Below are positions 5,114-63,658 of a stretch of DNA of 64,000 bases, in pieces. Source of the stretch: Candidatus Omnitrophota bacterium (GTDB taxonomy: Bacteria; Omnitrophota; Gorgyraeia; Zapsychrales; JANLHA01); the NCBI GenBank assembly GCA_029560465.1, contig JAKQKX010000065.1, positions 5,148-69,147 of the forward strand. Direction: 5' to 3'. The translations under genes were made by a program, and so were the position numbers. Position 1 is the stretch's first letter; each line of letters opens with the position of its first letter. The notes below the pieces were generated by a model that was given only the letters and a program-made list of their open reading frames with translations, was not told the origin of the DNA and made no database searches.

Positions 5114-5158
5114 CAGTCGTCTAGAATTTGATAACGGCCCCGCACAACCGGGGCGGTA

Positions 5159-5734: not shown

Positions 5735-5738
5735 GATT

Positions 5739-6347: not shown

Positions 6348-6897
6348 CATACGCTCTCTGCACCGCGTTGCAAAAGGCTCTGGAACTGATGGTCGCAGCC
6401 GTGATCGCGTCCACACTCCCCCCGTCTTTTTTCACCGTCAGGCTAAAGGCACCCGGATTCTTATTTTGAAATTGCCGGGTGAAATCCGATTTTTTACGGT
6501 CGATTTTATCCCCCAAGCCCGGGGTTTCTTTATGGTCCAGGACCTCCACGTCATAAATCGTTCCGTCAGGAAGAAACCCCACCATAAGCTTTATTTCCCC
6601 CCCGAACCCCTGCTGCGTCCAGGATTCGACAGCGGTCCCCACCACTTCCCCGGCTTTCTTGACCGGATACAGCGTGATACACCGTTCATTCTGGCAGCGT
6701 TCCGTTTTATCGTCAAACGGGGAACTGTCGAATTCCGGCACGACATTCCTGATAGCCTCTATTTTTTTATTTAATTCCGCCCGGGCCTTGGGGCCTTTCG
6801 TGACTTCATAGACAAAACCCAAGGACGCGGAAGAAACAAACGTCGCCACGAAAAGGGTCGTCACCAGATTGAGGAATGTTGGCTCCTTCTTTTTCAT
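6319..6897 (-). CDS. rnfG: Rnf complex subunit G (FMN-binding)
   Basis: 192 aa with an N-terminal membrane anchor and an FMN-binding C-terminus ([15 protein letters not shown]). Confidence 0.8.
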
Positions 6898-6898
6898 C

Positions 6899-9234: not shown

Positions 9235-9290
9235 AATAAGTCCTCTATTCCAATGGCTTAACTTCCGACCCCACAAACCCGCGCCATGCG

Positions 9291-10148: not shown

Positions 10149-10151
10149 GTT

Positions 10152-10583
10152 TTATGGGTTATGCTTTTTATAAAGTTTCATTTGGAAAGATCCCTTCAAC
10201 CTGGGACTCAAAACGTGCAGAATGACATAATAGGGGACCAGCATCAGCAACGCCCCGCCTCCAACCAGATATTCCCGGGTTGTCATCCTTGAAAGGATCA
10301 GGAGCGAAAAAACAACAATACCTAAGGGTAACAGATACGCCAGAACCAGCGCTTTAAAACCTTTGGCCTGTTCCAGGACAATGTTGACTTCTTCCCCGAC
10401 CGTAAAATCTTCCTGATGGTCGGAGAAAACGAGAATTTGATGTTGTGTTTCCGCCGCCCCGCAATGTTGTCTGGACTCGCATGAGCCGCAGGCCGATGTC
10501 CTCATAAGCTCCACAAAAACATCCCGGCCCTTAAGCTCTTTCACAACGCCCTGGTGCTCAACATTACGACTGGTGTGCATCAT
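10152..10583 (-). CDS. RseC/MucC-family (SoxR-reducing system) membrane protein preceding rnf
   Basis: 143 aa with an N-terminal Cys-containing soluble part (ACGSCESRQHCG) and two C-terminal transmembrane helices, positioned as the first gene of the rnf operon. Confidence 0.6.
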   Translation of the reverse strand: MMHTSRNVEHQGVVKELKGRDVFVELMRTSACGSCESRQHCGAAETQHQILVFSDHQEDFTVGEEVNIVLEQAKGFKALVLAYLLPLGIVVFSLLILSRMTTREYLVGGGALLMLVPYYVILHVLSPRLKGSFQMKLYKKHNP

Positions 10584-10761
10584 ATGTTAATCCGCCGCAT
10601 CAACTAAATGTTTTTACTATATCTTTACCCCTATATCTTGTCAAGCGGCATTTAGGCCTTCTTAAGACGAAAAAGGCGTCTGCGCCTGTTTCCGGGGATA
10701 AGCTTCGCAGGCGAGTCACCCGGAAGGAGGAGCCCTCTTCTTTTTAAAATTACTTTTACTT

Positions 10762-13268: not shown

Positions 13269-14657
13269 TCAATGAGGCCGTGTCATATCTTTGGGCCGGA
13301 TCAGGGCGTCAAATTCCGTTTCGGTGAGATACCCTGATTCGGCCGCCGCGACACGCAACGTTTTATCTTCTTTAAAAGCTTTCTGAACGATCTTGGCCGC
13401 TTTGTCATAGCCGATGTGCGGAGTCAGAGCGGTGACCAGCATGAGCGACTGTTCCAAGTGACGCTGAATGGTTTCAGCATTCAGCGCGATGCCTTGCACG
13501 CAATATTGGGTAAAATTCCGGACCGCGTCAGAGAGCAACTGGATGGATTGCAAAACGTTGAAAATGATGACCGGTTTACATACATTAAGCTGAAAATTCC
13601 CGCTGGCTCCGGCCAAGGCCACGGTCGTGTCATTCCCCACGACCTGCATACAGACCATGATCAAAGCCTCAGCCTGTGTGGGATTGACTTTCCCAGGCAT
13701 AATGGAACTTCCAGGCTCGTTGGCCGGCAATTGAAGTTCTCCGATCCCGCAACGCGGGCCGGAGCCAAGCCATCGGATGTCGTTGGCGATCTTGATCAGG
13801 GAAACCGCGATGACCTTTAAAATCCCGCTTAACTCAACCAGAGCGTCGTGGGCGGCGATCGCCTCAAATTTATTACGGGCGCTGACAAAAGGATACCCAG
13901 TCAACTCCGCCACCTGGGCAATCGCTTTTTCCGGGAATCCCGCCGGAGTGTTGATTCCGGTCCCAACGGCCGTCGCGCCCAACGCCACCTCATAAAGCCG
14001 GGGGAGCACCGCCTCAATTCTCTCCAGGCCGTTGATGATCTGCTGAGAGAACCCGCTAAATTCCTGTCCCAGCGTCAACGGAGTGGCGTCCATCAGGTGC
14101 GTGCGCCCGATCTTAACCACGTCCTCCCATTCCTCCGACTTCCGCGCCAATTGGTCCCCCATCCCCTGCAGTGCCGGGATCAGCGATTCCTGAAGCATGG
14201 TCACGGCGGCGATATGCATGGCCGTCGGAAAAACATCGTTAGAGGACTGGGACATGTTCACATGGTCGTTGGGATGCACGGGGTGTTTACTACCCAGGAC
14301 CCCCCCGGCCATTTCAATCGCCCGGTTGGCGATGACTTCATTCACGTTCATGTTGGTATGGGTGCCGCTCCCTGTCTGCCAGATTTTAAGAGGAAAATGA
14401 TCCAGGAAGAAACCGTCGATCACTTCCTCGGCTGCTTGAACAATATATTCGCAGGTTTTTGCGTCAAGCCTGCCACAGGCGGCGTTGGCCAGGGCACAGG
14501 CTTTTTTAACAATCGCCAGGGCCCGGATCATTTCCAGCGGCATGGCTTCGCCGCCAATGTCGAAATTCGTGGCTGAACGCGCGGTCTGGGCTCCGTAAAA
14601 CACATTCGCCGGCACAGGGATTTCGCCCAGGCTGTCTGATTCCATTCTGTAATCCAT
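13269..14657 (-). CDS. fumC: Class II fumarate hydratase
   Basis: 462 aa with the fumarate lyase signature [16 protein letters not shown]. The TQ variant indicates fumarase rather than aspartase. Confidence 0.85.
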
Positions 14658-14668
14658 AAAAAATATCC

Positions 14669-15412
14669 TTAACCTTTCTTCGAAATCAAGGTCTGAATCA
14701 AATCGACCGGGATCGGGAACAGGGTCGTGGTGTTGTTTTTGCCGCCGATTTCAACGAGCGTCTGAAGATAACGCAGTTGGAGCGACATGGGGGCTTTTTG
14801 CATCATCTCGGCGGCCTGGCAAATCTTTTCCGCCGCCTGAAACTCTCCTTCTGCCGCGATGATTTTCGCGCGGCGTTCCCGCTCCGCTTCGGCCTGGCGC
14901 GCCATCGCCCGCCTTAATTCCTCGGAAATATCCACATGTTTAACTTCCACATTGGTCACCTTGATGCCCCAAGGATCCGTCTGTTTATCCAAAAGCGTTT
15001 GCAGGCTGTCGTTAATCCTCTCTCTCTGGGCGAGGAGGTCATCCATCTCCATCTCCCCAAGCACGCTCCTAAGCGTTGTCTGGGCCATCTGCGAGGTCGC
15101 ATACTGGTAATTCTGAACTTCAACGATCGCCTTGATCGGGTCCATGACCCGAAAATACGCGACAGCGTTGACTTTAACCGAAACATTATCCTTGGTTATG
15201 ACATCCTGAGGCGGGACATCCAGAGTTACCAGGCGCATACTCACAACGACACCGGTCTCAATGGGGAAGAAAATAAAAATCAAACCCGGCCCCCGGGGCG
15301 CTTCCACAATTTTCCCGAGACGGAATATAACAACGCGTTCATATTCCTTAACGATTTTGACACTGTTCATCAACCACCAAGCCAGAATAACCAGGGCTCC
15401 TATAAACCACAT
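14669..15412 (-). CDS. SPFH/band-7 (stomatin-like) protein
   Basis: 247 aa with an N-terminal transmembrane helix, an SPFH domain and a C-terminal coiled coil ([19 protein letters not shown]). Confidence 0.8.
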
Positions 15413-15447
15413 GTCCCGCTCCTTTCGTAAAAGTGTTGCTTTTTTAA

Positions 15448-16935
15448 TTAGCTCTTCAAGGACTTCCTGACCTTCAGGGTCAGGCCATTGATGGCCACAA
15501 CGATGATTTTATCCCCGCCGGAGAGCGCTTCATCAGTTACGGCGTTCCACAATTCGCCGTGGACAAAAACTTTACCGTCAACGCCCGGGCCGAAATCTTT
15601 TTTCGTCACGCCCAGGGCGCCGATCATCCCTTCCTGCCCAGAAACAGGTTTCTGTCGAAAGGTCTTGATCGCCAACCTTAACAGAAAAGACGTGATAAAC
15701 GCGGTCGTCCCAAGGATGGAAATGATAATCGGCATCGAAACACGCATAATGGGTTCAGATCTGTCAAACAAGAGAACGGACCCCAGAAACATACACACCA
15801 CCCCCCCAGTCGTCATAACGCCAAATCCAGGGACAAACGCCTCTGCAATCAGGAGCCCCAACCCGACGAGGATCAGCGCCAACCCGGCATAATTTGTTGG
15901 GAGCATCTGCATGCTGAAAAAAGCCAAGATTAAGAAAATCGAGCCTAAAATGCCCGGGACACCAAACCCAGGGCTGGTTATTTCATAAAGAAGGCTTAAA
16001 AAACCCAGGATAAGGAACAAATAAGCAATATTCGGATTAGCCAGGACATTATAAAACTGCTGGCGCGCGCTCATGTCCACCCTGAAAACCTCGGCCCGGG
16101 CTGTTTTCAAAGTGACATCCATCCCGCGCACTTTCACCGTTTTTCCGTCCATCTGTTTTAACAAATCTTTTTCGTCCTGGGCGATGATATCAATGACATT
16201 CTGTTGCAACGCTTCGGTTTCCGTGATAGAAAGACTTTTGGTCACGCTTTTGATCGCCCATTCTTCATTCCGGCCGCGCAGATGGGCCATTGCCCGGATA
16301 AAAGCCACGGTATCCTGAAGGATTTTGGTGTCGAGCGCGTCATTATCCGGGATATATTCAAAGTCAGGCGCCTCTTCCGGAGACTGAGCCTCTTCCGGTT
16401 CCGGCGGCTTGACCTCAACGGGGTGTTTTTCGGCATCCTGCGATGGATCCGGGGGCAGGTTGCCTTTCGTCTCTTTGAGAATCTCCCTGACCTCTTTCCA
16501 CGGGTCGCTTTTGTGCCGGCCCATCTGGATAGGATGCGCGGCCCCGATATTGGTGGAAGGCGCCATGGCCGCGATATGCGCAGCATAGGTGATAAAAACC
16601 CCGGCGGATCCCGCACGCGACCCGCCGGGGGAAATATACACGACCACCGGCACATCCGCCGAAAGAACATATTTCACGATCTGCCGGGTCGAGGCCAGCA
16701 AGCCACCCGGAGTATCCATTTCAATAATCAAACACTGGGCTTTTTTCTCTTCCGCCAAATCAATGCCCTTCGCAATATATTCCGCAGTGATCGGGTTGAT
16801 CGTGTCATCATTAAGCCGGAGGAGATACACGCGTTCCCCGGCGGCTTCGGCCTTCTCAATGTTCGCCGGCACGCCGCTGGAAAAGCCTGCCAGCAAAATC
16901 ATGATCACAGATAAACGTAGGGATAAGGATTTCAT
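15448..16935 (-). CDS. NfeD-family membrane-bound ClpP-class serine protease (stomatin operon partner)
   Basis: 495 aa with a signal peptide, a ClpP-like protease domain ([14 protein letters not shown]...[11 protein letters not shown]), multiple transmembrane helices and a C-terminal OB-fold-like tail. It lies immediately upstream of the SPFH gene. Confidence 0.75.
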
Positions 16936-18396
16936 TTAATTCCTCTTTAAGAATTCGGTTAACAGGCGTACCCCCGCCCCGGTCGCCCCGGCCGCATAAT
17001 ATAAACGGCTTTTCCCTTCACGGAAAGCCGTGCCGGCAATATCAATATGTGCCCAAGGCGTGTCTTCGGTGAACTGGCGCAAAAATTCCGCAGCCGTCAT
17101 AGTTCCGGCCGCGCCTTTAGGGAAGCCCAAGTTTTTAAGGTCAGCGACCTGCGATTCAACCGCATCTTTGAGCTCAGGATAATTGGGCAGACGCCATAAC
17201 CGGTCATCCGTGATCTCCGCGGCGGCGAGCAATTTAGCGGCGAGGGTTTCATTATTCGAAACCAACCCGCTGTAATCATAACCCAGGGCGATTACGCAAG
17301 CGCCGGTGAGCGTGGCGATATCAATCAAACGCTGGGGCTTGTAATTTCTGACCACATAAGATATCGCGTCAGCGAGGACCAGACGGCCTTCGGCGTCCGT
17401 GTTGGCGACTTCAACCGTTTTACCACTATAACTTTTAAACACATCCCCTGGCTTGCAAGCAAGGGGACCGATGGCATTTTCCGCCAGGCCAAAGGCGAAA
17501 ATAATATTCTTTTTCAGCCCCAGGTGAATCACGTTCTTCAAAGTTCCGAGCAAAGCCGCCGCGCCGCTCATGTCAGAACGCATGGTCTCCATGTGGCCGG
17601 ACGGCTTGAGGTTAAGCCCTCCGGTATCAAACGTGATGCCCTTCCCGACCAAAGCGGTGGTCCGGGCATCGCGCGAGGCTCCCCGGTATTTGACAATAAT
17701 GAGTTTCGGCGGGTACTGGCTGCCTTTGTTCACTGCCAGGTGTAAGTTAAGCCCCTTCTCTTTAAGCTCCTCTTCATTAAGGATTTTAATGCTGGCCTGC
17801 TTGCACCCCCGGCTCACGGAAAAAACCGCTTCTTCAAACGCTTCCGAGTGAACCACGTCAGCGTTATCGTTAACTAGGTCCCTGGCCAATGTGACGCCAT
17901 CACAAACCATGACGGCTTCCGCAAAACATTTCTTTTCCTTCACCACCAGATACACCTGCCGGACTCTGGCCGGGCACTCGTCATTCTTAACGCTTCGGTA
18001 TTTATCCCATGTGTATGTCCCGATTAAAACACCTTCAATAACCGCGATGATTTCCGCGTCTTCCGCGAAAAACGCCGCCAGTTCTACTTCCCGGACCGTT
18101 TTGATAAATTCAGATGCCAGGGCCTGCCGGACCGCCACCCGCAAGGTCGTGAGAAAGCCCGGGGCCTTAGCCCCTAAGCCGACAAACAGGACGGTCCGGT
18201 TCTTCTGGACAACCGGGAAAAGCTCCCCTTTCTCCGCTTTAAAAACCTGGCCCTGTGTTAAGGAAGCAAGCGCGGACTTCAATTCGCCGGGCAGTTGACT
18301 CAGCCAGGTTTTCTGTTCAATTTGATCTTTACCGACCAAAACCAGAAGGGCCGGTTTATCCATTAATAATTTAGGACGAAATTCAATCATAAACAA
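16936..18396 (-). CDS. pepA: Leucyl aminopeptidase (M17)
   Basis: 486 aa with the M17 signature NTDAEGRLVLADAISY and a VGKGITFDTGG motif. Confidence 0.85.
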   Translation of the reverse strand: MFMIEFRPKLLMDKPALLVLVGKDQIEQKTWLSQLPGELKSALASLTQGQVFKAEKGELFPVVQKNRTVLFVGLGAKAPGFLTTLRVAVRQALASEFIKTVREVELAAFFAEDAEIIAVIEGVLIGTYTWDKYRSVKNDECPARVRQVYLVVKEKKCFAEAVMVCDGVTLARDLVNDNADVVHSEAFEEAVFSVSRGCKQASIKILNEEELKEKGLNLHLAVNKGSQYPPKLIIVKYRGASRDARTTALVGKGITFDTGGLNLKPSGHMETMRSDMSGAAALLGTLKNVIHLGLKKNIIFAFGLAENAIGPLACKPGDVFKSYSGKTVEVANTDAEGRLVLADAISYVVRNYKPQRLIDIATLTGACVIALGYDYSGLVSNNETLAAKLLAAAEITDDRLWRLPNYPELKDAVESQVADLKNLGFPKGAAGTMTAAEFLRQFTEDTPWAHIDIAGTAFREGKSRLYYAAGATGAGVRLLTEFLKRN

Positions 18397-18423
18397 TAAT
18401 CCTTTCCGATGGGGATTCCGTTA

Positions 18424-19713
18424 TTAACGCTGGTCGATGGGGATATATTCCCTCTTATTCGCCCCGACATAGATCTGCCTGGGCCTGGCAATACGCGTTT
18501 CGGGATTCTCAACCATTTCTTTCCAGTGGGCGATCCATCCCGGCAGACGGCCAATGGCAAACATCACCGGGAACATCGGCGTGGGGATCCCGATGGCTTT
18601 ATAAATCAGGCCGCTGTAAAAATCAACGTTGGGATAAAGTTTTCTTTCCGCAAAGTAATCATCTTTCAACGCCTTCTCTTCAAGCTTTACAGCTAAATCC
18701 AGCAAAGGGTCATGCCGGTCTAAAGTGTTCAGCAAGGCATGGGTCTCCGTCTTGATAATTTTGGCCCGGGGGTCATAATTTTTATAAACCCGGTGGCCGA
18801 ATCCCATAAGCCGGAACTTGCTGTCGGGGTCTTTGGCCTTCGCGATATATTTGTCCACATCCCCGCCATCAGCGGAGATCATTTCCAGCATCTCAACCAC
18901 TTTCTGGTTGGCGCCGCCGTGCAAAGGCCCCCAAAGAGCAGAGACACCAGCGGAAACCGAAGCGAACAGATTGGCCCCGGAACTGCCGACCATCCTTACC
19001 GTCGAAGTGCTGCAGTTCTGCTCATGGTCGGCATGAAGCAGAAAAAGCATCTTCAGGGTGTTCACAACGGTTTGATTAATTTTGTATTCATGGGTCGGCG
19101 TGGAAAACATCATATGTAAAAAATTCGCCACATATTCCAATTCTTCCTTGGCGTACATAAACGGCTCGCCCACTGTTTTCTTGTACGTGCAAGCCACAAT
19201 CGTCCTGACCTTGGCCATCAGTTCAATGGCGCTCAATTCAATGTCTTCCGGCCTAGGATCCGGCTTAATCAGTTCTGGGTAATAGACAGACAGCGCGCAA
19301 ATCATCGCCGAAAGCATGGCCATAGGGTGGCCTGTTGCCGGATAGCCGCCAAAAAACTTCTTCATGTCCTCATGAAGATTGGCATTTTTGGTAAAAGCAT
19401 TGGAATAACGGCTCAGCTCGGCCCGGGATGGCAGCTCCCCGTTAATAAGGAGATACGCGGTTTCTACAAACGAAGCCTTCTCGGCCAGTTGTTCGATCGG
19501 ATAGCCCCGGTAGCGCAAGATGCCTTTATCCCCGTCTATATAAGTAATCGCGCTCCGGCAGGAACCCGTGCTGGCGAACCCGGGATCAACTGTAATATAG
19601 CCGGTTTCCTGGCGCAATTTGGAAATCACAAAACCATGCTCGCCTTCCGTGCCAACCACCACCGGGAGTTCAATCGTCTTATCATCAATCACAAGTTTAA
19701 CTTTTTCTGACAT
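18424..19713 (-). CDS. gltA: Citrate synthase
   Basis: 429 aa with the citrate synthase signature GFGHRVYKNYDPRA. Confidence 0.9.
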   Translation of the reverse strand: MSEKVKLVIDDKTIELPVVVGTEGEHGFVISKLRQETGYITVDPGFASTGSCRSAITYIDGDKGILRYRGYPIEQLAEKASFVETAYLLINGELPSRAELSRYSNAFTKNANLHEDMKKFFGGYPATGHPMAMLSAMICALSVYYPELIKPDPRPEDIELSAIELMAKVRTIVACTYKKTVGEPFMYAKEELEYVANFLHMMFSTPTHEYKINQTVVNTLKMLFLLHADHEQNCSTSTVRMVGSSGANLFASVSAGVSALWGPLHGGANQKVVEMLEMISADGGDVDKYIAKAKDPDSKFRLMGFGHRVYKNYDPRAKIIKTETHALLNTLDRHDPLLDLAVKLEEKALKDDYFAERKLYPNVDFYSGLIYKAIGIPTPMFPVMFAIGRLPGWIAHWKEMVENPETRIARPRQIYVGANKREYIPIDQR

Positions 19714-19825
19714 GGCAAGCTCCTCTTTCTTTTTGAAGTAAATTGTTGCAAAATATTATATTATAATCACTTTGCATTTGCAACTCTAAAGGGGACAGGG
19801 AGGAAAAAGATACGCGGGAAGAGGG

Positions 19826-20230
19826 CTAATCCTGATCGGATTTTTCTAAAATAGATGCCAATTTGGTTAATAAAATATTAGCATCTATAGGCTTAAGAAT
19901 ATAATCATCGCAGCCTTTCTCATACGCTTCCAGGAAACGTTTTTCATACGCTGTCACAATAATAATGGGGATCCCGTCTCCCAAGGCAATACCGGCGTTT
20001 TTTTCGCTTTCCCTTATTTTTTCAAGGATTTCCAAACCGTTAATCTCCGGGAGCTCAATATCCAGGAGGATCAGGCTATATTGATCGCCTCTCTGAAGAG
20101 ACAAATTATACGCCTCGATAGCTTCCTTCCCGCTGGCCGCGAAATCACATTCCGCGACTTCCCTTAAAATTTCGGCCAGCAACTGCCTGTTCTCAAAATT
20201 ATCATCCACAATGAGGATTTTATGCATCAT
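19826..20230 (-). CDS. Single-domain response regulator (CheY-like receiver)
   Basis: 134 aa with the receiver-domain acidic pocket (ILIVDDNF...ILLDIELP...K). Confidence 0.8.
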   Translation of the reverse strand: MMHKILIVDDNFENRQLLAEILREVAECDFAASGKEAIEAYNLSLQRGDQYSLILLDIELPEINGLEILEKIRESEKNAGIALGDGIPIIIVTAYEKRFLEAYEKGCDDYILKPIDANILLTKLASILEKSDQD

Positions 20231-20262
20231 GATCTCCCGGTCGCCTTATTATACCCATATCC

Positions 20263-20607
20263 CTAAGGCATTTTATTAATATATTCCGAAAACTTTTCGG
20301 ACTCTCTCTTTAAAAGAGCAAAATATTCTGCCAACTTCACGGGGTCGGCCATACCTTTGACTTCAAGGTGCATGAAATTTTCCGCTTCATTGATACTCGA
20401 CAGCCTTAAATTGCTGGCGGTCCCTTTAACTTCATGCAAGATCCTTCGCATCGCCTCTTTATCCATGACCTGCAAAGCAGCGCCCAACTCCGTTATTTTT
20501 TCCTGAAGCGTCCCGGCAAAACTCTTGACAATACGCAGATAAATATCTGGACGGATCTTCAATTCTGAACTGATGCGTTCGGCGTCAATCTGAAATAGCT
20601 CATCCAT
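20263..20607 (-). CDS. Stand-alone Hpt (histidine phosphotransfer) protein
   Basis: 114 aa with the HxxKG motif (HEVKGTASNL) in a helical context. Confidence 0.6.
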   Translation of the reverse strand: MDELFQIDAERISSELKIRPDIYLRIVKSFAGTLQEKITELGAALQVMDKEAMRRILHEVKGTASNLRLSSINEAENFMHLEVKGMADPVKLAEYFALLKRESEKFSEYINKMP

Positions 20608-20619
20608 TTTTTCAATTAT

Positions 20620-20973
20620 TTAACGGCATCCCATGCCGGAATTTTCACAAAACTTTTTCAACTCTTTAAAAACGCCCGATAAAACCGTGAACAATCCGGT
20701 CAGCTCCGCCTGATTGATATTCCCGGATTTAACTATAACATTCATGGTGCGGGCGACAGACGACAGGTCCGTGATGCGCATGTTGTCGTAATCGCCTTTC
20801 AAACGATGCGACAGCTTCTGGACCGTGTCCCAATCTCCCCCGTTCATCGCCTTTTCAAGATCCACGATATCGCCGGTCGTCTGAGCGACAGCCTTATTTA
20901 AAATCCTCAGATAAATATCCCGCCCGATTTTAAGTTCTTCACAATTTTTATCCACATTGATCGCTAATGCCAT
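20620..20973 (-). CDS. Stand-alone Hpt (histidine phosphotransfer) protein, paralogue of the neighbour
   Basis: 117 aa with the HxxKG motif (HRLKGDYDNM). It shares the KIxxDIYLRIxK motif with the 20263..20607 protein. Confidence 0.6.
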   Translation of the reverse strand: MALAINVDKNCEELKIGRDIYLRILNKAVAQTTGDIVDLEKAMNGGDWDTVQKLSHRLKGDYDNMRITDLSSVARTMNVIVKSGNINQAELTGLFTVLSGVFKELKKFCENSGMGCR

Positions 20974-20998
20974 AAGCCCCCTCCAGACGGCACAGTAT

Positions 20999-21595
20999 TC
21001 ATTTCGTTTTCAGCCGGGGCACCGCACCCATCGTCATGTCCATCACCAACCGTCTAACATTGTCTATTTCAAAAACAACTTCAACCATGTCAAATTCATT
21101 ATAACAGAAATCCACCCCGGCAAAGGCGGAATTACGGTAATTTATAAAATGTGACATTTCAAGCTCAATATAGCCGGCGATCGAAATCTCGGATTTGAAC
21201 CGGCCGGATATAATGTTGCAAAGCGTACCGCAGGAATCCTGCATGGCGGTGTCACTCTCATCGTCAATCGGCGGATACTTTAAGAGCTTCATCATTTTGG
21301 AAATATAATCCTGCTGGACATAAATGATCAGGGCTCCCAGCGTCTTTTTTTGAGCCATATCTTTTTCGCTGGCATAGAAATTGACGGCGGAGACATACGT
21401 CGGTTCATTATCATATTTCTCCATCCCGTCAGCGCGCATTTTCCCTTCAAACTCAATGATCTTCCTCCGGGTCTTGGACGGTTCTTTGGAAAAATGCACG
21501 TCCCCCCGTTCGTTGAACAGAGCCACTGTCCCCTGCTCCAGGAGGTCGGCGAATTTATCCAATTCTTTATTTTTCTTACCCAGGAAAAACAACAA
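20999..21595 (-). CDS. Hypothetical protein in phosphorelay island, possible degenerate CheX/CheC-like phosphatase fold
   Basis: 198 aa with no confident family assignment. DSCGTLCNIISGRF resembles the xxxNIxxG core of CheC/CheX motifs but lacks the catalytic Glu. Confidence 0.35.
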   Translation of the reverse strand: MLFFLGKKNKELDKFADLLEQGTVALFNERGDVHFSKEPSKTRRKIIEFEGKMRADGMEKYDNEPTYVSAVNFYASEKDMAQKKTLGALIIYVQQDYISKMMKLLKYPPIDDESDTAMQDSCGTLCNIISGRFKSEISIAGYIELEMSHFINYRNSAFAGVDFCYNEFDMVEVVFEIDNVRRLVMDMTMGAVPRLKTK

Positions 21596-21612
21596 CCACG
21601 TCCTTTCCAGAA

Positions 21613-22023
21613 TTAATTAGACGATTTCAACTGCACAAACGGATAAATAACATCCAGCAATGATTCCGGTGTGTACGGCTTCACAACATACCCGACAAGA
21701 TTAGGATTAACCGCCCAAGCCTTTTTCTTGTTCTCATCCGTCCCGGAAGCGGTGACCATGATGATCGCTTTGTTGGCCACCTGCGGGACTTTCACCACCG
21801 CCTCCATAAATTCCATCCCCGACATCCGGGGCATCTGCCAGTCCAGGAGGATAAGCCCCACTTCCTTGTAATGGGTCCCCAGGATTTCAATCGCCTCCTC
21901 CCCTGTCCTGGCCTGCAGAAAACCATTCTGGACTCCAGCCCCTTTGAGGACCTCAATCAACAACTCCCTCTCCAGGTCAGAATCATCCACCACTAATATT
22001 TTGCCATGATTTAATTCTTCCAC
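21613..22023 (-). CDS. Single-domain response regulator (CheY-like receiver)
   Basis: 136 aa with receiver motifs (ILVVDDSDLE...ILLDWQMP...VKP). Confidence 0.8.
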   Translation of the reverse strand: MEELNHGKILVVDDSDLERELLIEVLKGAGVQNGFLQARTGEEAIEILGTHYKEVGLILLDWQMPRMSGMEFMEAVVKVPQVANKAIIMVTASGTDENKKKAWAVNPNLVGYVVKPYTPESLLDVIYPFVQLKSSN

Positions 22024-22056
22024 AAGGGTCGTCCTTTGGTTAAATAATATCCCTCA

Positions 22057-24342
22057 TCACATTTTTGTGTTACGAATAATTTTCTCCTTCAATTCATCCA
22101 CACCAAACGGCTTGGGAAGATAATCCGTCATGCCGGCTTCCAGGCACCGGTCCTTCTCGTCTTCCAGTTCCGCCGCCGTAAGCGCTATGATCGGCAAATT
22201 CTTTTTTAACTCATTCCGGATAATCCTCGTTGCTTCGACCCCGCCCATCACAGGCATTTGCAAGTCCATAAAACAGATGCCGTAATCATTCTTCCGGAGG
22301 AACTCTATCGCTTCCTGGCCGTTCGCCGCGTAATCACAGGTGCAGCCAAGTGTTTCAAAATGAACTTTCAGCAATTCCATATTGGGAATACTGTCCTCCG
22401 CGACCAGAACTCTCACTCCGGAGCAGGAAATTTTCTGGATCATCTCATCCGATAAAACGCGCGCGTAATCGGTCTTCTCACCCAGGACGCGCTGCAACAC
22501 ATCGCACAGCTCGGCCGAGATAATGGGTTTCGGCAAAAAAATGTCAAACCCGGCCTGGTTGAATTCAGAAGACGTCTCCACTTTAACATCCGACGACACG
22601 CCAATCAGCTTGATATTTTTATAATGTTCCTGCTGTTTCAGTTTATAGGCCAACATATACGCTTGTTTTTCCGGGAGAAGCAAATCAATAAAAATCAAGG
22701 CTGGTAAACTCTGCTGGCCTTTCTCCCTGGACAAGAGCAATTCGGAGGCCTGCTTGGCCGTCTGGCAGACCGCCAGGACGTTCAACCGGGCGGCCTCGAA
22801 CTGCGGGAGATACTGACGCAAAGATGTTTCGTGCATATCCACGATCAAAACTTCCGCCCCGGCGTTCTTTTGGAGGACCACCACATCTTCTTTGGGAGGG
22901 TGCTCCGTGGATTCATCAAAACAAATCGTAAAAATAAAACGGCTGCCTTCCCCCAGTTTCGATTCCAGCCATATCGTCCCCCCCATTGTTTCCACAAAAG
23001 TCTTACACAAGGCCAAACCTAACCCGGAGCCGCCATAAATGCGCGTTGTCGCATCATTGGCCTGCGTGAACGTTTCGAAAACAGCGTCCTGACGGTCTTC
23101 AGGGATCCCGATCCCGGTATCGCGCACGAGAAATTTAAGCGTCCGGCCCGGCTGCGTAAACCCATTCTGTCCGACCAGGCTGACCTCCAACCCGATCTCG
23201 CCATGTTCAGTGAATTTGATCGCGTTATCGATCAAATTGATAAAAATCTGTTTCAGCCGGGTCGGGTCTCCCATGAGAAACCGCGGGACGTCCAGCGCGA
23301 TATTGAAATACAGGTTAATAGGCTTGCTTGTCAAACGGGTACGGATAATCTTAAAAACTTCTTCAACGACATAATCAAGGTTAAAAGGGATCTTCTCCAA
23401 TTTGAGTTTCCCGGACTCAACTTTGGAGAAATCCAGGATGTCGTTGACAATCTCCAACAGCATCCGTCCGCTGACAATAATCGTGTTCAAATGCTCGTTC
23501 TGTTTGCTGTTAAGCCCGCTTTCTTTCAGGAGGTCGGTAAACCCCAAAATCGCATTGATCAGCGTCCGGATCTCATGAGACATGTTCGCCAAATATTCAC
23601 TTTTAGCCCGGGCTTCTTCCTGAGCCTGCTGCGTCAGCTTGATCGCCAGTTCACGCTCCTTGATAAGTTCCCTCTGGCGTTCATGCAACTTACTCTGGGC
23701 CACTTTCAGTTCACGGCCGGTTTCCTCATAATCCTGCAACAGCTTCGAAAGAACCCCGACCTCACAATCAACCCGGCCCTGGGCATGTTCGAGTTGTTGT
23801 TTGAACAAAGTGCAGGCTGTCATGTCCGGCTCGAAATTAATCTTGGGTATATTGCGGACAATCGGCTTCACCGGGCGGGCGGACGAGCTGCTTTTTCGGA
23901 TGGTTTCGTCAACAGCGGCGATAATGCTTGTCACATCGAGATATTCACTCTTCAACTCCCCGCCATTAACGATCTGTTCATCCAAAAGTTCCAGCAATTT
24001 CTGCAGGGCCTCAATGGCCCGCGTGATCAGCAGGATCATATCATTGTCAAGCTGGAGAAGATTCTTGCGGAACTTATCTAATAATGTTTCCGAGGAGGCG
24101 GTGAGCGAGAAGATATCGTGCAGATCTAAAAAATCGGCAAGTCCTTTAATGGTGTGGAATGTTTTAAAAACATCTTCAACCGCTTCCCGATCCGAAGGGA
24201 CAGTTTCCAAAATTAACAATGCGTTCCTGGCAGCAATGAGGTGCCGCTGGGCTTCACGGGAAAAATCCGTGAGCATTTCCGTCCCTTCCGACAGGTCCAG
24301 TTGAGGAACCTGGGGGAGGAACTCTTTTCTCTCAGGAGTCAT
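22057..24342 (-). CDS. Hybrid sensor histidine kinase: N-terminal Hpt - coiled coil - HisKA - HATPase_c - degenerate REC - REC
   Basis: 761 aa. N-terminal Hpt motif FHTIKGLADF. HisKA H-box MSHEIRTLINAILGF. ATPase boxes NLIDNAIKFT, DTGIGIP and GGSGLGLALCK. Two C-terminal receiver-like segments, the last being canonical (VLVAEDSIPN...FMDLQMP). Confidence 0.85.
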   Translation of the reverse strand: MTPERKEFLPQVPQLDLSEGTEMLTDFSREAQRHLIAARNALLILETVPSDREAVEDVFKTFHTIKGLADFLDLHDIFSLTASSETLLDKFRKNLLQLDNDMILLITRAIEALQKLLELLDEQIVNGGELKSEYLDVTSIIAAVDETIRKSSSSARPVKPIVRNIPKINFEPDMTACTLFKQQLEHAQGRVDCEVGVLSKLLQDYEETGRELKVAQSKLHERQRELIKERELAIKLTQQAQEEARAKSEYLANMSHEIRTLINAILGFTDLLKESGLNSKQNEHLNTIIVSGRMLLEIVNDILDFSKVESGKLKLEKIPFNLDYVVEEVFKIIRTRLTSKPINLYFNIALDVPRFLMGDPTRLKQIFINLIDNAIKFTEHGEIGLEVSLVGQNGFTQPGRTLKFLVRDTGIGIPEDRQDAVFETFTQANDATTRIYGGSGLGLALCKTFVETMGGTIWLESKLGEGSRFIFTICFDESTEHPPKEDVVVLQKNAGAEVLIVDMHETSLRQYLPQFEAARLNVLAVCQTAKQASELLLSREKGQQSLPALIFIDLLLPEKQAYMLAYKLKQQEHYKNIKLIGVSSDVKVETSSEFNQAGFDIFLPKPIISAELCDVLQRVLGEKTDYARVLSDEMIQKISCSGVRVLVAEDSIPNMELLKVHFETLGCTCDYAANGQEAIEFLRKNDYGICFMDLQMPVMGGVEATRIIRNELKKNLPIIALTAAELEDEKDRCLEAGMTDYLPKPFGVDELKEKIIRNTKM

Positions 24343-24434
24343 GTCAACCCCACCCGATAAAATATTAATAAATAAAACTCACAATAAATATATCATCAAC
24401 TCCTCGCAAAAAAAAGCATTGATCATAATATTTA

Positions 24435-25508
24435 CTAATATGAATTCACGCATCGGTTTCGTATATCTTCAATGAGGGGCAGAATCTCCAGGAAGCGGTC
24501 CACGATAATAGGAGAAAAATGGGTTTCTTTCATGTGCCGGATCTCTTCAACCGCCGCGTCAACCGGCCACGCTTGCTTATATGGCCGGTCCGAGGTTAAC
24601 GCATCAAAGACATCACAAATACTGCAAATCTGCCCCACGACCGGGATTTCATCGCCCCGAAGCTGTTTGGGATACCCTGTCCCGTCCCATTTTTCATGAT
24701 GCGTGATGCAGATGATCTGCGCCATTTTCATAACCGGAGAACTGCTGCCGGCAAGGAGCTTCGCGCCGATCACGGTGTGAGTCTTCATAATTTCATATTC
24801 TTCCTGTGTCAAACGGCCCGGTTTTAACAAGACGGCGTCGGGGATACCCAGCTTGCCGATATCGTGGAGCGGGCTGGCATGCAGCAAAAGGTCGCACTCC
24901 GGCAGGCTCATTCCCATGGCAACCCCGAATTTCTGGCAATACTGGCTCATCCGGATAATATGCAACCCCGTATCACTGTCGCGGAATTCCGCGGCTTGGG
25001 CGAGCCGCCGGATAATGTCCAGCTGAGTTTCCCTCAGCTCCTTCGTCCGCTCCTGCACTTTGCTTTCCAGGATCTTATTCTGGTTCTTGACTTCCATATG
25101 CAAAGACCGCATCTCGATCATGTTGTGAATGCGAAAAATAATCTCCATATTTTCATAAGGCTTATTAAGAAAATCCGTTGCGCCGGACTGCAGTGCCCGC
25201 AAGCGGACATCGGAACTCTTCTCGGAAGACAGCGCGAGGATGGGGAGATAATGCTCCCTCCGGAATTCTGCCAATTGCTCCATGATCTGAAATCCATCAA
25301 GGTGCGGCATAAAAATATCCAAGACAATGATCTCCGGCTGAAAATCCCGAACCAAACCGAGGACCTTAAGCGAATCGTTGGCGTATTCCACGTTCTTAAA
25401 TCCTTCTTCCGCGAGTATCTTTTTCAAATAAAGTCCGTGGAGTTTCTGGTCATCCACAATCAGAATCCTGGAATTATCCATTTGTTCTTTTGTATACATA
25501 AGAGCCAT
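24435..25508 (-). CDS. Response regulator with HD-GYP c-di-GMP phosphodiesterase output domain
   Basis: 357 aa with an N-terminal receiver (ILIVDDQKLH...IVLDIFMP) and an HD-GYP domain (HHEKWDGTGYP). Confidence 0.85.
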   Translation of the reverse strand: MALMYTKEQMDNSRILIVDDQKLHGLYLKKILAEEGFKNVEYANDSLKVLGLVRDFQPEIIVLDIFMPHLDGFQIMEQLAEFRREHYLPILALSSEKSSDVRLRALQSGATDFLNKPYENMEIIFRIHNMIEMRSLHMEVKNQNKILESKVQERTKELRETQLDIIRRLAQAAEFRDSDTGLHIIRMSQYCQKFGVAMGMSLPECDLLLHASPLHDIGKLGIPDAVLLKPGRLTQEEYEIMKTHTVIGAKLLAGSSSPVMKMAQIICITHHEKWDGTGYPKQLRGDEIPVVGQICSICDVFDALTSDRPYKQAWPVDAAVEEIRHMKETHFSPIIVDRFLEILPLIEDIRNRCVNSY

Positions 25509-25650
25509 CCGTCAATTAAGCGCACGCCGTGACGAATCGCGTCACGCGCCGCCTTCTCACACGCCTGATCTTTTTAAAATTTAATAAATAATACTATTTT
25601 AATGTCTGGACAAGCGGAATGTAAGTAAAATTCCGGTTTTTTAATTTTCA

Positions 25651-26424
25651 TTAAAGATTCTCAGGAATACGCTCAAGATTCCACTGTTGCAGATTCTCTA
25701 AGACCTGATAATCCGTTAAATCACATTGAACAGGGGAAATCGTGATATATTTCTTTTTCAAAGCGCTTGTATCGACATCCAAAACCCCGTCTGTCCGTGG
25801 CGCTTTCCCGCTCATCCAATAGTATGTTCTTCCTGAAGGATCCTGCCGTTTCTTGAAAATTCCTTCGATAGGCGCGACGCACTGCCGGGCCGCCCGGATC
25901 CCCTTAATATCTTTCGCCGGGAGATTGGGAACATTGATATTTAAAAACGTCCCCTTCGGGAGGCCCCGTTTCAGCACATCCCTGGCAACCAGGCGGGCCA
26001 CCTTAGCCGCGGTCCGGAAATCCGGGTTGACAAACGTGTCCAAAGAAACCGCCAAGGAAGGGATTCCGCTCAAAGCGCCTTCCCGCGCCCCGGCGACCGT
26101 TCCGGAATAAAAAACACTGCTGCCGTCGTTCCCTCCGATATTGATCCCGGACACAACAAGGCCAGGCTTTTTCTTTAAAATCACCTTTATCGCGAACTTG
26201 ACACAATCCGCCGGGGTCCCGCTGATCCCGTAGCCAAAGAACGCGCCTTTTCGCCGGATCTCTTTGTACCAGATCGGATGAGACAGAGTAATCCCGTGGC
26301 CCACAGAACTCCGCTCGCTATCCGGGGCCACGACAACGATCTCTCCCATCCTTTTCATTTCCGCGACAAGAGCGTAAATCCCTTCCGAGTAAACGCCATC
26401 ATCATTTGTAATCAGTATGGTCAT
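25651..26424 (-). CDS. surE: 5'/3'-nucleotidase SurE
   Basis: 257 aa with the SurE N-terminal signature MTILITNDDGVYSEGI. Confidence 0.85.
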   Translation of the reverse strand: MTILITNDDGVYSEGIYALVAEMKRMGEIVVVAPDSERSSVGHGITLSHPIWYKEIRRKGAFFGYGISGTPADCVKFAIKVILKKKPGLVVSGINIGGNDGSSVFYSGTVAGAREGALSGIPSLAVSLDTFVNPDFRTAAKVARLVARDVLKRGLPKGTFLNINVPNLPAKDIKGIRAARQCVAPIEGIFKKRQDPSGRTYYWMSGKAPRTDGVLDVDTSALKKKYITISPVQCDLTDYQVLENLQQWNLERIPENL

Positions 26425-26465
26425 GCCCTTCCTCCTTTAGATGGGCCGGCACACCAGCCCTGAAT

Positions 26466-27554
26466 TCACTCCGAAACACATCCCGCACCCCCCGTCAAAC
26501 AGGCACGGCCTTCACGCAGTCTTTCCACTATTTTCACGCTCCCGGAAGGCATCGCATAATCCGAAAACTCCCGGGACCTCACCCAACGGTGCGTTTCATC
26601 AGATTTCGGGATAGGCCGCGCAGAACACAGCCACACGGATAAATGCACGCGGAACTGGGTATAAAAATGCCTCACATTCATCAACGGCACTGCGGACTGA
26701 ATGGCGACGCCCAATTCTTCATCGAGTTCGCGTTCCAAGGCCCGACGGCTTGTTTCTCCCTCCTGAATCTGCCCGCCGGGGAACTCCCACAAACCCGCCA
26801 ATAACCCCGACAGAGGCCGGCGCTGGATAAAAAAACGCCCTTTATGCCTGATCACGGCAATCGCCGCGTAGATATCCTTTAGTTTCTTTGTTTTCGGCTC
26901 CGGGATAATCTCCTGCACTCCTTTATGATAGGCCTGACAGGCGTTCCGAACAGGACATTGAGAACACAAGGGAAGCTGACTGCGGCAAACCGTCGCCCCG
27001 AGCTCCATCAAAGCCTGGTTAAAATCCCCGGGGGCTCGAGCCGGCAAAAGGCGCTTTAATTCTCCGGAAATCACGCCGTCATGCCGGCCATCCGCCTTCC
27101 CGTCCAAAAGGAGCAGGCGCATAAAGACTCTGCGGACATTCGCGTCAATAATCGGTTCCGCTTTCTGAAAAGCGATACTTAAAACGGCCCCGGTCGTGTA
27201 AGCCCCGAAACCGGGCAACCGCCGGAGGTTCTCCTTATCAGCCGGCAATGTTCCCCCGTAACATTCGCAAATGATCTGGGCCGCCTTATGAACATTCCGG
27301 GCACGCTGGTAATACCCGAGCCCCTGCCAAGCTTTTAGAATTTCAGCGGGCGACGCCCGCGCGACACTTCCGACATCCGGGAACTTTTCGATCCACCGCT
27401 CATAATACGGGATGACCGCCGAAACCGTTGTCTGCTGCAACATAATTTCGGAAACCCAGACTTTATATGGATCAGAGGTCCTGCGCCACGGGAGATCCCG
27501 GGCATGCCTCCGGTACCAACAACGCAAATTCCTGTTAAAACCATTTCTATCCAT
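26466..27554 (-). CDS. mutY: A/G-specific adenine DNA glycosylase
   Basis: 362 aa with an HhH-GPD domain (LQQTTVSAVIPYYERW), a 4Fe-4S loop (CRSQLPLCSQCPVRNAC) and a C-terminal NUDIX-like domain (LWEFPGG). Confidence 0.85.
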   Translation of the reverse strand: MDRNGFNRNLRCWYRRHARDLPWRRTSDPYKVWVSEIMLQQTTVSAVIPYYERWIEKFPDVGSVARASPAEILKAWQGLGYYQRARNVHKAAQIICECYGGTLPADKENLRRLPGFGAYTTGAVLSIAFQKAEPIIDANVRRVFMRLLLLDGKADGRHDGVISGELKRLLPARAPGDFNQALMELGATVCRSQLPLCSQCPVRNACQAYHKGVQEIIPEPKTKKLKDIYAAIAVIRHKGRFFIQRRPLSGLLAGLWEFPGGQIQEGETSRRALERELDEELGVAIQSAVPLMNVRHFYTQFRVHLSVWLCSARPIPKSDETHRWVRSREFSDYAMPSGSVKIVERLREGRACLTGGAGCVSE

Positions 27555-51754: not shown

Positions 51755-51767
51755 ATCCCCGGCACCC

Positions 51768-62455: not shown

Positions 62456-62827
62456 TTATTCCCCGAGGATATCGCGGATCCTGGCAACAAGCTCTGAAGT
62501 CTTAAAAGGTTTTGCGAGCACGTTAAAAAATGACTCCTCGATATTGGCCCCCAAATGCTCCTCATCCTTGGAAAGGGCACACGTTAAAAAAAGCACCGGG
62601 ATATCTTCGGTTTCCGGGTCGGCTTTGATCAGGCTATACGCTTCGGTCCCGTCCATTTCAGGCATCAGGATATCCATCAGGATAAGATCCGGACGGATAT
62701 CCCGCGCTTTCGCAATGCTGTCCAATCCGTTATCGGCCGTGACGATTTTATATTGGAATTTTTCCAACGTGTCCGAAATCAATTTCAGGTCCACCGGATC
62801 ATCATCAACCACCAAAATCGTCTTCAT
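62456..62827 (-). CDS. Single-domain response regulator
   Basis: 123 aa with receiver motifs (ILVVDDDPVD...ILMDILMPEMDG). Confidence 0.8.
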   Translation of the reverse strand: MKTILVVDDDPVDLKLISDTLEKFQYKIVTADNGLDSIAKARDIRPDLILMDILMPEMDGTEAYSLIKADPETEDIPVLFLTCALSKDEEHLGANIEESFFNVLAKPFKTSELVARIRDILGE

Positions 62828-62891: not shown

Positions 62892-63275
62892 TTATTTGGA
62901 CGAATTCAGGATCAATTTAATAATATCTCGACGGCTAATCACCCCCATGACCCTGCCGTTTTCAACGATAGGGACCCGGCGCACGTTCGTTCTGATAAAA
63001 AATTCGCAAATATCAATCACACTATCCCCGGGAGCAAAAAATTGCACATCCAACGACATGTAATCACCCACGACTTCCTGGGAAGTAATCACATCGCTGA
63101 CTAAAAGCCTCAAAAGGTCCTTCTCCGTTATGACCCCTATGAGTTTTTCGTCTTTATCCACGACCGGCAACCCGCTAATCCGCTTCTCAACCAATATTCT
63201 CATAGCGTCAAGCAACGGGGTGGTCTGATGGACCACGATAACATCCTTTATCATAATATCTCTGGCGTTTAACAT
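62892..63275 (-). CDS. CBS-pair domain protein
   Basis: 127 aa with two CBS motifs (IMIKDVIVVHQTTPLLDAMRIL...ISGLPVVD and GDYMSLDVQFFAPGDSV...RRVPIVENGRVMGVISRRDI). Confidence 0.8.
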   Translation of the reverse strand: MLNARDIMIKDVIVVHQTTPLLDAMRILVEKRISGLPVVDKDEKLIGVITEKDLLRLLVSDVITSQEVVGDYMSLDVQFFAPGDSVIDICEFFIRTNVRRVPIVENGRVMGVISRRDIIKLILNSSK

Positions 63276-63292: not shown

Positions 63293-63658
63293 TTATTCCC
63301 CCAAAGCGGATCGGACGGCGGAAAGGACCCGGTCGCTTTCAAAAGGCTTGATGATATAATCCACCGCCCCGGCGCGGATCGCTTTCATCAAGGCCACCCG
63401 CTGATCCACGGCGGTCACCATGATGATTTTCGCTTTCCCGTCAATAGCCAGGATATCATGGATCGCCTCAATGCCATCCTTTTCAGGCATGACAATATCC
63501 ATTGTCAACAAATCCGGCCGCAGCTCGCGGAAAAGCTCAACAGCTTCTTTGCCGTTATTGCATTCCGCGGTCACCTCATAACCCGCCTGGACAAGAATAT
63601 CTTTAAGCATGGAACGGATTATAGGAGCGTCGTCAACTACAATAATCTTTTTTGACAT
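63293..63658 (-). CDS. Single-domain response regulator (CheY-like)
   Basis: 121 aa with receiver motifs (IIVVDDAPII...LLTMDIVMPEKDG...IIKP). Confidence 0.8.
   Translation of the reverse strand: MSKKIIVVDDAPIIRSMLKDILVQAGYEVTAECNNGKEAVELFRELRPDLLTMDIVMPEKDGIEAIHDILAIDGKAKIIMVTAVDQRVALMKAIRAGAVDYIIKPFESDRVLSAVRSALGE

Follow-up and report, generated by a model that had tools for sequence, protein, structure and literature searches.

The DNA analysed here, hereafter the window, is a 64,000-nucleotide stretch of contig JAKQKX010000065.1 from a Candidatus Omnitrophota bacterium. Its minus strand carries, between positions 19826 and 25508, seven consecutive co-directional open reading frames (ORFs) for proteins of phosphorelay and chemotaxis (Che) families. 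A first-pass annotation had described this region as a Che-like phosphorelay island of seven co-directional genes, and the ORF listing confirms the seven genes. Pfam likewise bears out the domain content proposed at that time, namely a response regulator that joins a receiver (REC) to an HD-GYP domain, a hybrid histidine kinase with its own Hpt domain, two single-domain receivers (here REC_A and REC_B), a CheX-like protein and two small stand-alone Hpt proteins (here Hpt1 and Hpt2). No NCBIfam equivalog was obtained for any of the seven proteins. The coordinates of the genes, of the kinase domains and of a second cluster near the window edge are given in Table 1.

Table 1. Positions of the seven-gene block, the domains of its kinase and the Che-cluster tail in the window
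Feature	Position	Strand	Size or residues	Evidence or remark
REC-HD-GYP response regulator	24435..25508	-	357 aa	Pfam Response_reg 81 bits, HD_5 102 bits
Hybrid histidine kinase	22057..24342	-	761 aa	Pfam Hpt, HisKA, HATPase_c, two Response_reg stretches
Kinase, CheA-P1-like Hpt domain	23860..24321	-	aa 8-161	His63 in FHTIKG
Kinase, HisKA and HATPase_c catalytic core	22921..23607	-		His256 in HisKA
Kinase, REC1, degenerate pseudo-receiver	22507..22854	-	aa ~497-612	
Kinase, REC2, canonical receiver	22078..22410	-	aa 645-755	Asp693
REC_A, CheY-like single-domain receiver	21613..22023	-	136 aa	Pfam Response_reg
CheX-fold protein	20999..21595	-	198 aa	TTG start; Pfam CheX 25.4 bits, below cut-off 27
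Hpt1, stand-alone phosphotransfer protein	20620..20973	-	117 aa	Pfam Hpt 25.6 bits
Hpt2, stand-alone phosphotransfer protein	20263..20607	-	114 aa	Pfam Hpt 26.0 bits
REC_B, second single-domain receiver	19826..20230	-	134 aa	Pfam Response_reg 77 bits
Che-cluster tail of the same genome	62456..64000	-		Pfam; continues past window edge
CheC-like gene	63674 to beyond 64000	-		canonical E-x2-N
CheY	63293..63658	-	121 aa	
CBS-pair protein	62892..63275	-		
Receiver	62456..62827	-	123 aa	

From the kinase gene onward, the genes of the window are separated by gaps of 12–33 nucleotides (nt), and a gap of 92 nt lies between the HD-GYP gene and the kinase gene. Across the orthologous loci the median gaps are 11–18 nt, and in several genomes stop and start codons overlap, for example those of the HD-GYP gene and the kinase gene in L003 and L058. 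Upstream, the block is flanked by surE, mutY, an NAD-kinase-like gene and a gene for a HAD hydrolase, and downstream by genes for citrate synthase (gltA), an M17 peptidase, NfeD and an SPFH protein. The first-pass annotation had proposed a search for the block in related genomes. A genome scan recovered 31 loci in separate species-representative genomes, all of them metagenome-assembled genomes (MAGs) of the Omnitrophota type, and the window proteins, when mapped onto these loci, fall in the invariant order surE, REC-HD-GYP, kinase, REC_A, CheX-like, Hpt, REC_B and citrate synthase. Metagenome contigs hold at least five further copies of the block. The CheX-like proteins of the 31 loci are 39–94% identical to that of the window; homologues of this protein are all around 190–198 amino acids (aa) long, and the named ones belong to Candidatus Omnitrophota. 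Many of the MAGs that carry the operon (L004, L008, L011–L014 and others) are labelled 'uncultured Planctomycetales', which looks like a loose taxonomic label and not like a true presence in Planctomycetes.

With one and the same order at 31 loci and on at least five metagenome contigs, the genes occur together far more often than chance would allow. Furthermore, because the order and the flanks (surE and citrate synthase) are both conserved, the block is, judging from synteny, a vertically inherited core operon of the Omnitrophota situated between surE and gltA, and not an island as first described. Its GC content is unremarkable and no mobile-element genes flank it. A mobile or horizontally acquired island is ruled out by the conserved flanks and the synteny, and it is hardly credible that the seven genes became neighbours by chance, or arrived as an island without any common function, and still show identical order and flanks at 31 loci of separate species-representative genomes.

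Median identities to the window proteins, computed without the three closest genomes, are 78% for REC_A, 76% for REC_B, 68% for citrate synthase, 61% for the HD-GYP protein, 59% each for surE and the CheX-like protein, 53% for the kinase, 44% for Hpt2 and 42% for Hpt1. By this measure, REC_A and REC_B appear to be under stronger constraint than the neighbouring tricarboxylic acid-cycle enzyme citrate synthase. Since they are better conserved than this enzyme, the operon would be a central control circuit of these cells. The Omnitrophota are a widespread phylum, known here from MAGs alone, of ultra-small and partly host-dependent bacteria.

The HD-GYP protein has its receiver Asp at D64, the HD pair at H215 and D216 (HDIGK), and the HHE-WDG-GYP signature at residues 270–280 (HHEKWDGTGYP). 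In an alignment of 24 sequences (the window protein and 23 orthologues), H183, H215, D216, K219, H270, E272, D275, G278, Y279 and P280 are kept in all 24, barring one ambiguous residue of the HD pair, and H271 is replaced by Gln in three. In the receiver of the same protein, the first acidic Asp is present in all 24 sequences, the phospho-accepting Asp in 23, the second acidic Asp and the Ser/Thr in 22 each, and the Lys in 20. Because the HD-GYP residues are essentially invariant, an output through cyclic di-GMP (c-di-GMP) is plausible. The first-pass annotation had named hydrolysis of c-di-GMP as the terminal output of the relay. We regard it as one plausible output, but probably not the sole one, since REC_A and REC_B are the most conserved proteins of the block; their stronger conservation suggests that the two receivers are at least as important as outputs. 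No GGDEF, EAL or PilZ domain is among the families listed for the window ORFs that were scanned.

The kinase consists, in this order, of a P1-like Hpt domain, a coiled coil, HisKA, HATPase_c, a pseudo-receiver and a receiver. No transmembrane or sensor domain was found in it, and it is predicted to be cytoplasmic. Its catalytic core matches Pfam HisKA with 68 bits and HATPase_c with 100 bits, and the N-terminal Hpt match (39 bits, aa 22–114) contains FHTIKG. Over residues 8–161 the identity is 48.7% (E 3e-39) with the P1 domain of CheA from the metagenome locus L035, 43% with that of a CheA in L038, and no more than 31% with the CheA encoded in the window's own genome. Identities of 43–49% to CheA P1 domains make the kinase a chimera, in which a domain of the CheA-P1 type is joined to the core of a HisKA hybrid kinase. 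It has no Pfam match to H-kinase_dim (P3) or CheW (P5), with HisKA instead, and by its domains it is a kinase of the HisKA type, not a CheA. The core is 38% identical to a CHASE4 hybrid kinase in L044, and a protein search with residues 1–211 gave five matches only. Every orthologue that spans them retains His256 of the H box as well as the N, G1 and G2 boxes. The P1-like His63 is kept in 22 of the 25 sequences covering this position and is Tyr (FYTIKG) in L029–L031, a lineage that has the Hpt2-type gene only.

Two C-terminal receivers had been attributed to the kinase. Both are present, but the first, REC1, is degenerate. In REC2, each of D650 (the second Asp of the acidic pair), D693, T722 and K744 is invariant in 28 of 28 sequences. 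In REC1, the acidic pair is unconserved (D, T, E or S at its first position, with the second variable), the Lys varies as well, and the Asp is mostly kept. REC1 is deleted in L023 and L026, and the metagenome kinases of L054, L061, L064 and L065 are around 130 aa shorter and have no match over the REC1 region. The lineage without the pseudo-receiver (L023 and L026, probably also the four metagenome loci) retains Hpt2 alone.

Among solved structures, the kinase is closest to a cytokinin-receptor-type kinase (7p8e) and to Caulobacter ShkA (6qrj), both of DHp-CA-pseudoREC-REC architecture; over the region from REC1 through the linker to REC2, the best match among them is ShkA (E 2.6e-22). ShkA is an input-less hybrid kinase that is activated when c-di-GMP binds its pseudo-receiver (PMC6969517). 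If the kinase of the operon were gated in this way, c-di-GMP would bind REC1 and free REC2, and the HD-GYP enzyme would close a negative feedback loop. The common input-less plan, the presence of a separate Hpt protein, as with ShpA in Caulobacter, and the c-di-GMP enzyme encoded in the operon all fit such a scheme. However, the ShkA contacts Y338, R344, S347 and Q351 correspond here to F602, I608, E611 and D614 (R324 lies outside the alignment), and the linker motif DDR reads DEM. Because the contact residues and the DDR motif differ, the ShkA mechanism is unsupported for this kinase, and with REC1 itself missing from the loci named above we consider it very unlikely.

The two small Hpt proteins, previously given as 115 aa each, are 117 and 114 aa long, and both score above the Pfam Hpt (PF01627) cut-off of 24.6 bits. 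Their assignment had been made to depend on a conserved phospho-accepting His. This residue is His56 in SHRLKGDYDNMRI of Hpt1 and, in the window, His58 in LHEVKGTASNLRL of Hpt2, and it is invariant in all orthologues of either protein. The proteins fall into two orthologous groups, Hpt1 with SHRLKGDYDNMRI and Hpt2 with LHEIKGTAGNLRL. The Hpt1 profile matches the solved Hpt domains 7c1i, RcsD (1sr2) and YPD1, and the Hpt2 profile matches 7c1i, 3myf and the Hpt domain of ArcB. In the printed alignments (with 7c1i, RcsD 1sr2 and 3myf), the His of Hpt1 and Hpt2 stands on the conserved His of H-x2-KG, which belongs to AHSFKG in 7c1i and to AHRLKG in the RcsD Hpt domain. Hpt1 is 29% identical to Hpt2 and 30% identical to the Hpt protein of the Che cluster in L038. 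A 42-nt DNA repeat between the hpt1 and hpt2 genes is a remnant of the Hpt duplication.

The tandem pair is not universal. Both Hpt genes occur in 19 of the 31 loci, and the other 12 have one only: the Hpt1 type alone is found in six complete loci and the Hpt2 type alone in six. A seventh locus with Hpt1, L025, ends right after that gene. The single Hpt genes were typed with profiles built from two-Hpt genomes only, and the scores of the two profiles lie two- to three-fold apart; in the single-Hpt loci the gap fits one gene only. By this distribution the duplication is ancient and was followed by reciprocal loss among lineages, which argues for partly overlapping roles of the two proteins.

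The 198-aa protein had been described as a protein with a degenerate CheX-like motif, and its predicted structure agrees with this. The AlphaFold2 model has a mean confidence score (pLDDT) of 92.9, and in a Foldseek search against the PDB the ten best matches are CheX or CheC-like proteins with E ~1e-8, followed by CheC, FliY and FliM; the top structures are 1squ, 3hm4, 3h4y, 3iic, 1xko, 6vpw, 3h2d and 3hzh. The Pfam CheX family (PF13690) is matched below its gathering cut-off in the window, and some orthologues carry a precomputed match to it. A phmmer search of the PDB with the C-terminal half of the protein gave spurious armadillo and PAS matches only. The protein is around 40 residues longer than CheX, owing to an N-terminal extension and a conserved insertion of around 15 residues (EY-G-MR-DG-EKF).

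The motif itself, D120-S-C-G-T124-L-C-N127 (D-x3-T-x2-N, nt 21215–21238), was aligned in two ways, by profile with Borrelia burgdorferi CheX (3hzh_B) and in a multiple alignment with two canonical CheX proteins from metagenome Che clusters. Both alignments place Thr124 at the position of the catalytic Glu and Asn127 at that of the catalytic Asn (N99 in B. burgdorferi CheX). All 33 aligned family members have both T124 and N127, and the surrounding helix is likewise invariant; conservation is high over the family alignment as a whole. An exhaustive profile search among 1.84 billion proteins returned 198 representatives only (50% identity, E <= 0.001). Many distant CheX-like relatives carry an intact E-x2-N, as in CGEFCNVIAG, which makes the Thr a derived state. 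The altered position lies between two cysteines (C122-G-T-L-C126), and another Cys, C164, shows hardly any variation; a Cys right before the Asn is also common in the relatives with Glu (E-type) and is absent from canonical CheX. That these cysteines form a redox or metal site in a sensor-less pathway is pure speculation.

CheC, CheX and FliY phosphatases insert an Asn to orient the attacking water, and an acidic residue is reported to be required for their wild-type activity; Rap phosphatases work with an amide residue alone (PMC3035606). With Thr fixed in place of the catalytic Glu and the Asn still present, the protein most probably either acts as a weak phosphatase through the Asn alone or binds phosphorylated REC_A without catalysis. 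It could instead be a fully active phosphatase of phosphorylated CheY (CheY-P) in an ordinary two-component relay, with the Thr of no consequence. The CheX fold, the invariant Asn and helix, the conserved adjacency to a CheY-like receiver gene and the example of the Rap proteins would allow this, but the reported need for the acidic residue does not favour it. Moreover, the genome of the window keeps a Glu-type CheY/CheX-like pair in its Che cluster beside the Thr-type pair in the seven-gene operon, and a Thr fixed in all family members while the E-type paralogue is retained argues for functional divergence and not for neutrality. We therefore hold full phosphatase activity to be possible though rather unlikely. 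The Glu-type and Thr-type paralogues of one genome constitute a natural experiment on what the acidic residue contributes.

REC_A and REC_B both have the canonical receiver residues. REC_A shows the motifs DD, LLDWQMP (with D61) and GYVVKPY. It is 51–53% identical to the CheY encoded beside the CheX-like gene in the Che clusters of L035 and L038 and 53.7% identical to a 125-aa receiver of the Che cluster in its own genome. REC_B has D57 in LLDIELP and an insertion between alpha3 and beta4, and shares 58.5% identity with the receiver encoded next after an Hpt gene in the L038 Che cluster. The REC_A gene always adjoins the CheX-like gene. In a divergent Omnitrophota MAG (L034:451–1438), REC_A and a Thr-type CheX-like gene form an isolated pair, with no kinase, Hpt or HD-GYP gene nearby, and by this lone occurrence the two form the minimal module. 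The L034 pair is flanked by a gene with a lipid-A-biosynthesis domain and by a DsbA-like thioredoxin gene.

The first-pass annotation had listed CheA, CheW, CheB and CheR as absent. Inside the block this is so (tblastn with the CheA core, CheW, CheR and the CheB methylesterase), and the CheA core and CheW are absent from the operon at all orthologous loci too, but a full Che cluster exists elsewhere in the genome. Its tail lies at the end of the window (Table 1). A contig that is 100% identical to positions 54001–64000 of the window and runs on beyond its end (L073) continues upstream of CheC with CheD, CheA (934 aa), CheB, CheR, PilZ, CheW, CheW and a partial receiver gene, and two contigs of 98–99% identity (L072 and L074) add the complete gene for the 125-aa receiver and an N-extended CheX-like gene of the E-type (DFCSEFCNMITGQF). 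Pfam detects no chemoreceptor domain on the seven products of the operon; methyl-accepting chemotaxis proteins were not searched for elsewhere.

Loci of the E-type CheX-like relatives were taken from metagenomes and then annotated (L035, L038 and L044). L035 encodes CheA, CheD, CheR, CheB, CheX-like, CheY, CheX and a CheX-domain protein. L038 encodes CheA, PilZ, CheR, CheB, CBS, CheX-like, CheY and CheX, and continues with Hpt, a REC_B-like receiver, a REC-HisKA kinase, REC, CheA and Hpt. L044 encodes three receivers, Hpt, a CHASE-PAS protein, a CHASE4 hybrid kinase and the CheX-like protein, followed by a pseudopilin, PilM and PilN. The kinase N-terminus, REC_A and the CheX-like protein are, by these comparisons, closest to proteins of genuine Che clusters, and the label 'Che-like' is justified by ancestry. 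With an E-type CheX-like gene situated directly between the gene for the CHASE4 hybrid kinase and those for the pseudopilin, PilM and PilN (L044:7566–10754), a link of the N-extended CheX-like family to the control of type IV pili in some organisms may be suspected.

Given these relationships, the operon might be an output branch of the cell's own chemosensory pathway, in which the CheA encoded around 38 kb away phosphorylates the P1-like Hpt domain or one of the receivers of the kinase and/or, directly, REC_A, and chemoreceptor input is turned into changes of c-di-GMP. A precedent for phosphate flow from a CheA to a HisKA-type kinase exists in Rhodospirillum centenum, where CheA3 phosphorylates a receiver of CheS3 (PMC3868531). 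Such a branch would suit a kinase that lacks a sensor domain of its own, the Che homology of the P1-like N-terminus, REC_A and the CheX-like protein, the complete Che cluster with PilZ in the same genome, the nearly identical order of CheX-like, CheY, Hpt and REC_B-like genes in the L038 Che cluster, and the solitary REC_A/CheX-like pair of L034. However, the autokinase core of the hybrid kinase is complete and conserved, its P1-like domain is closer to foreign CheA proteins (43–49%) than to that of its own genome (31%), the Che cluster already possesses a CheY/CheX-like pair, and the operon contains neither CheW nor the CheA core in any of more than 30 genomes. We consider a chemosensory output branch unlikely on balance.

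We think it reasonably probable that the operon encodes a sensor-less, cytoplasmic multi-step phosphorelay, vertically inherited and assembled from chemosensory parts. The gene content, key catalytic residues, CheX-like fold, Che homology and synteny are established above, whereas all transfers of the phosphoryl group, the outputs of the enzymes and the input are inferred. The kinase would autophosphorylate on His256 and pass the phosphoryl group to Asp693 of the canonical REC2, from which it would reach an Hpt His, namely the kinase's own P1-like His63 and/or His56 of Hpt1 and His58 of Hpt2. The Hpt modules would then serve three terminal receivers, namely REC_A, REC_B and the receiver of the HD-GYP protein, whose phosphorylation would change c-di-GMP hydrolysis. 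REC_A and REC_B probably bind conserved cellular partners or serve as phosphate sinks. The CheX-fold protein would be a dedicated partner of REC_A that tunes or reads out its phosphorylated form, and REC1 would be a regulatory or scaffolding module that has been lost in some lineages.

Several observations weigh against such a relay. The kinase has no recognisable sensor domain through which it could receive an input signal. Because His63 is replaced by Tyr in L029–L031, the N-terminal Hpt site, as far as the alignment tells, cannot be essential to the relay everywhere, and as either Hpt1 or Hpt2 can be lost, the 'branched' wiring first proposed appears not to be fixed. The pair in L034 apparently works without the rest of the system, and REC_A may be fed by another kinase, for example CheA. 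Finally, a scan for promoter and terminator consensus sequences gave no clear operon boundaries, and co-transcription is deduced from spacing and synteny alone; the terminator-like matches fall within genes, except one on the opposite strand across the Hpt2 stop codon.

A bolder version of the phosphorelay, which we offer tentatively and think unlikely, is that the operon is a chemotaxis pathway that has lost its receptors and become a self-contained relay in the cytoplasm, with a P1 domain of CheA joined to a HisKA hybrid kinase, and in which the Thr-type CheX-fold protein is no longer a phosphatase and acts as an effector or adaptor dependent on phosphorylated CheY. FliM uses a CheC-like fold to bind CheY-P. 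If true, this would give the CheC-like fold a new output role, coupled to c-di-GMP turnover.

Every component family of the operon is known, as are multi-step relays that end in HD-GYP regulators, and the system can be compared with several of them. Like Che pathways with alternative functions, such as Che3 of R. centenum (CheA3/CheS3/CheY3), it has a CheA-P1-type Hpt domain, a CheY-like receiver, a CheX-fold partner and a HisKA-type hybrid kinase (CheS3 in R. centenum), and its output is probably likewise not flagellar. Unlike Che pathways, it has no CheW, CheR, CheB or CheA core (P3–P5), and its P1 domain is fused to a HisKA hybrid kinase; unlike Che3, it has stand-alone Hpt proteins and an HD-GYP enzyme. 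The CheX-like protein shares with the CheX/CheC/FliY phosphatases (Thermotoga maritima and B. burgdorferi CheX; 1xko, 3hzh) the fold, the catalytic Asn, the spacing D-x3-?-x2-N and a neighbouring CheY-like receiver, but differs in the invariant Thr for Glu, the greater length, the Cys residues around the motif, the Pfam score below cut-off and the small size of its family.

The ShkA-ShpA-TacA relay of Caulobacter and the plant cytokinin-receptor kinases have the same DHp-CA-pseudoREC-REC order, and the Caulobacter relay also has a cytosolic input-less kinase, a separate onward Hpt protein and a link to c-di-GMP. In contrast to ShkA, the kinase of the operon lacks the c-di-GMP-binding residues and DDR and has an extra N-terminal Hpt domain, and the operon ends in an HD-GYP enzyme and single-domain receivers instead of a transcription factor. 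As in Pseudomonas relays of the HptB type, small free Hpt proteins are present, and among solved structures both Hpt1 and Hpt2 match the 116-aa Hpt chain 7c1i_A best; unlike these relays, the operon has two tandem paralogous Hpt genes with reciprocal loss, and other downstream partners. Xanthomonas RpfC/RpfG and the H-NOX system HnoK/HnoB/HnoD likewise combine a hybrid kinase and Hpt with a REC-HD-GYP protein that should lower c-di-GMP, and relays of both types are branched with several receivers, as proposed for the operon. RpfC, unlike the operon kinase, is a sensor in the membrane and carries its Hpt domain at the C-terminus, and we know of no CheX-fold protein, stand-alone Hpt pair or CheA-P1-like domain in RpfC/RpfG-type and Hno systems.

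In the literature on Omnitrophota HD-GYP proteins, chemotaxis and pili, we found no published description of this operon. Likewise not found described were a HisKA hybrid kinase fused to a domain of the CheA-P1 type, a CheX-fold protein with a fixed Thr for Glu paired with a CheY-like receiver, a tandem Hpt pair with reciprocal loss, and such a block conserved in full throughout an uncultured phylum. The operon suggests that parts of the chemotaxis machinery (the P1 domain, CheY and CheX) can be re-used in a receptor-less relay tied to c-di-GMP.

Some further features of the window were recorded. A 20-nt AT-rich stretch with 85% identity is common to the two longer spacers, at positions 24360–24379, upstream of the kinase gene, and 25576–25595, upstream of the HD-GYP gene, which could be due to chance in AT-rich DNA. 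Upstream of the HD-GYP gene, at 25530–25560, there is a perfect palindrome, GTGACG-N5-CGTCAC. An Rfam scan of positions 18000–27000 at E <= 1 yielded no riboswitch or other RNA family. The regions at around 4000–10600 and at 13269–19713 carry genes for housekeeping and energy metabolism, for example subunits of an Rnf/Nqr-type complex and fumarase, together with citrate synthase, the M17 aminopeptidase, the NfeD/SPFH pair, an ECF-type sigma factor and an AraC-type regulator. A double-receiver protein is encoded at 58184–59032. At 51371–52961, on the minus strand, a gene for a REC-HisKA-HATPase kinase (397 aa) is followed by that for a single-domain receiver (127 aa). A REC-HisKA-HATPase protein, likewise of 397 aa, and a receiver are arranged in this way in the L038 Che cluster too, and the two pairs may be homologous.

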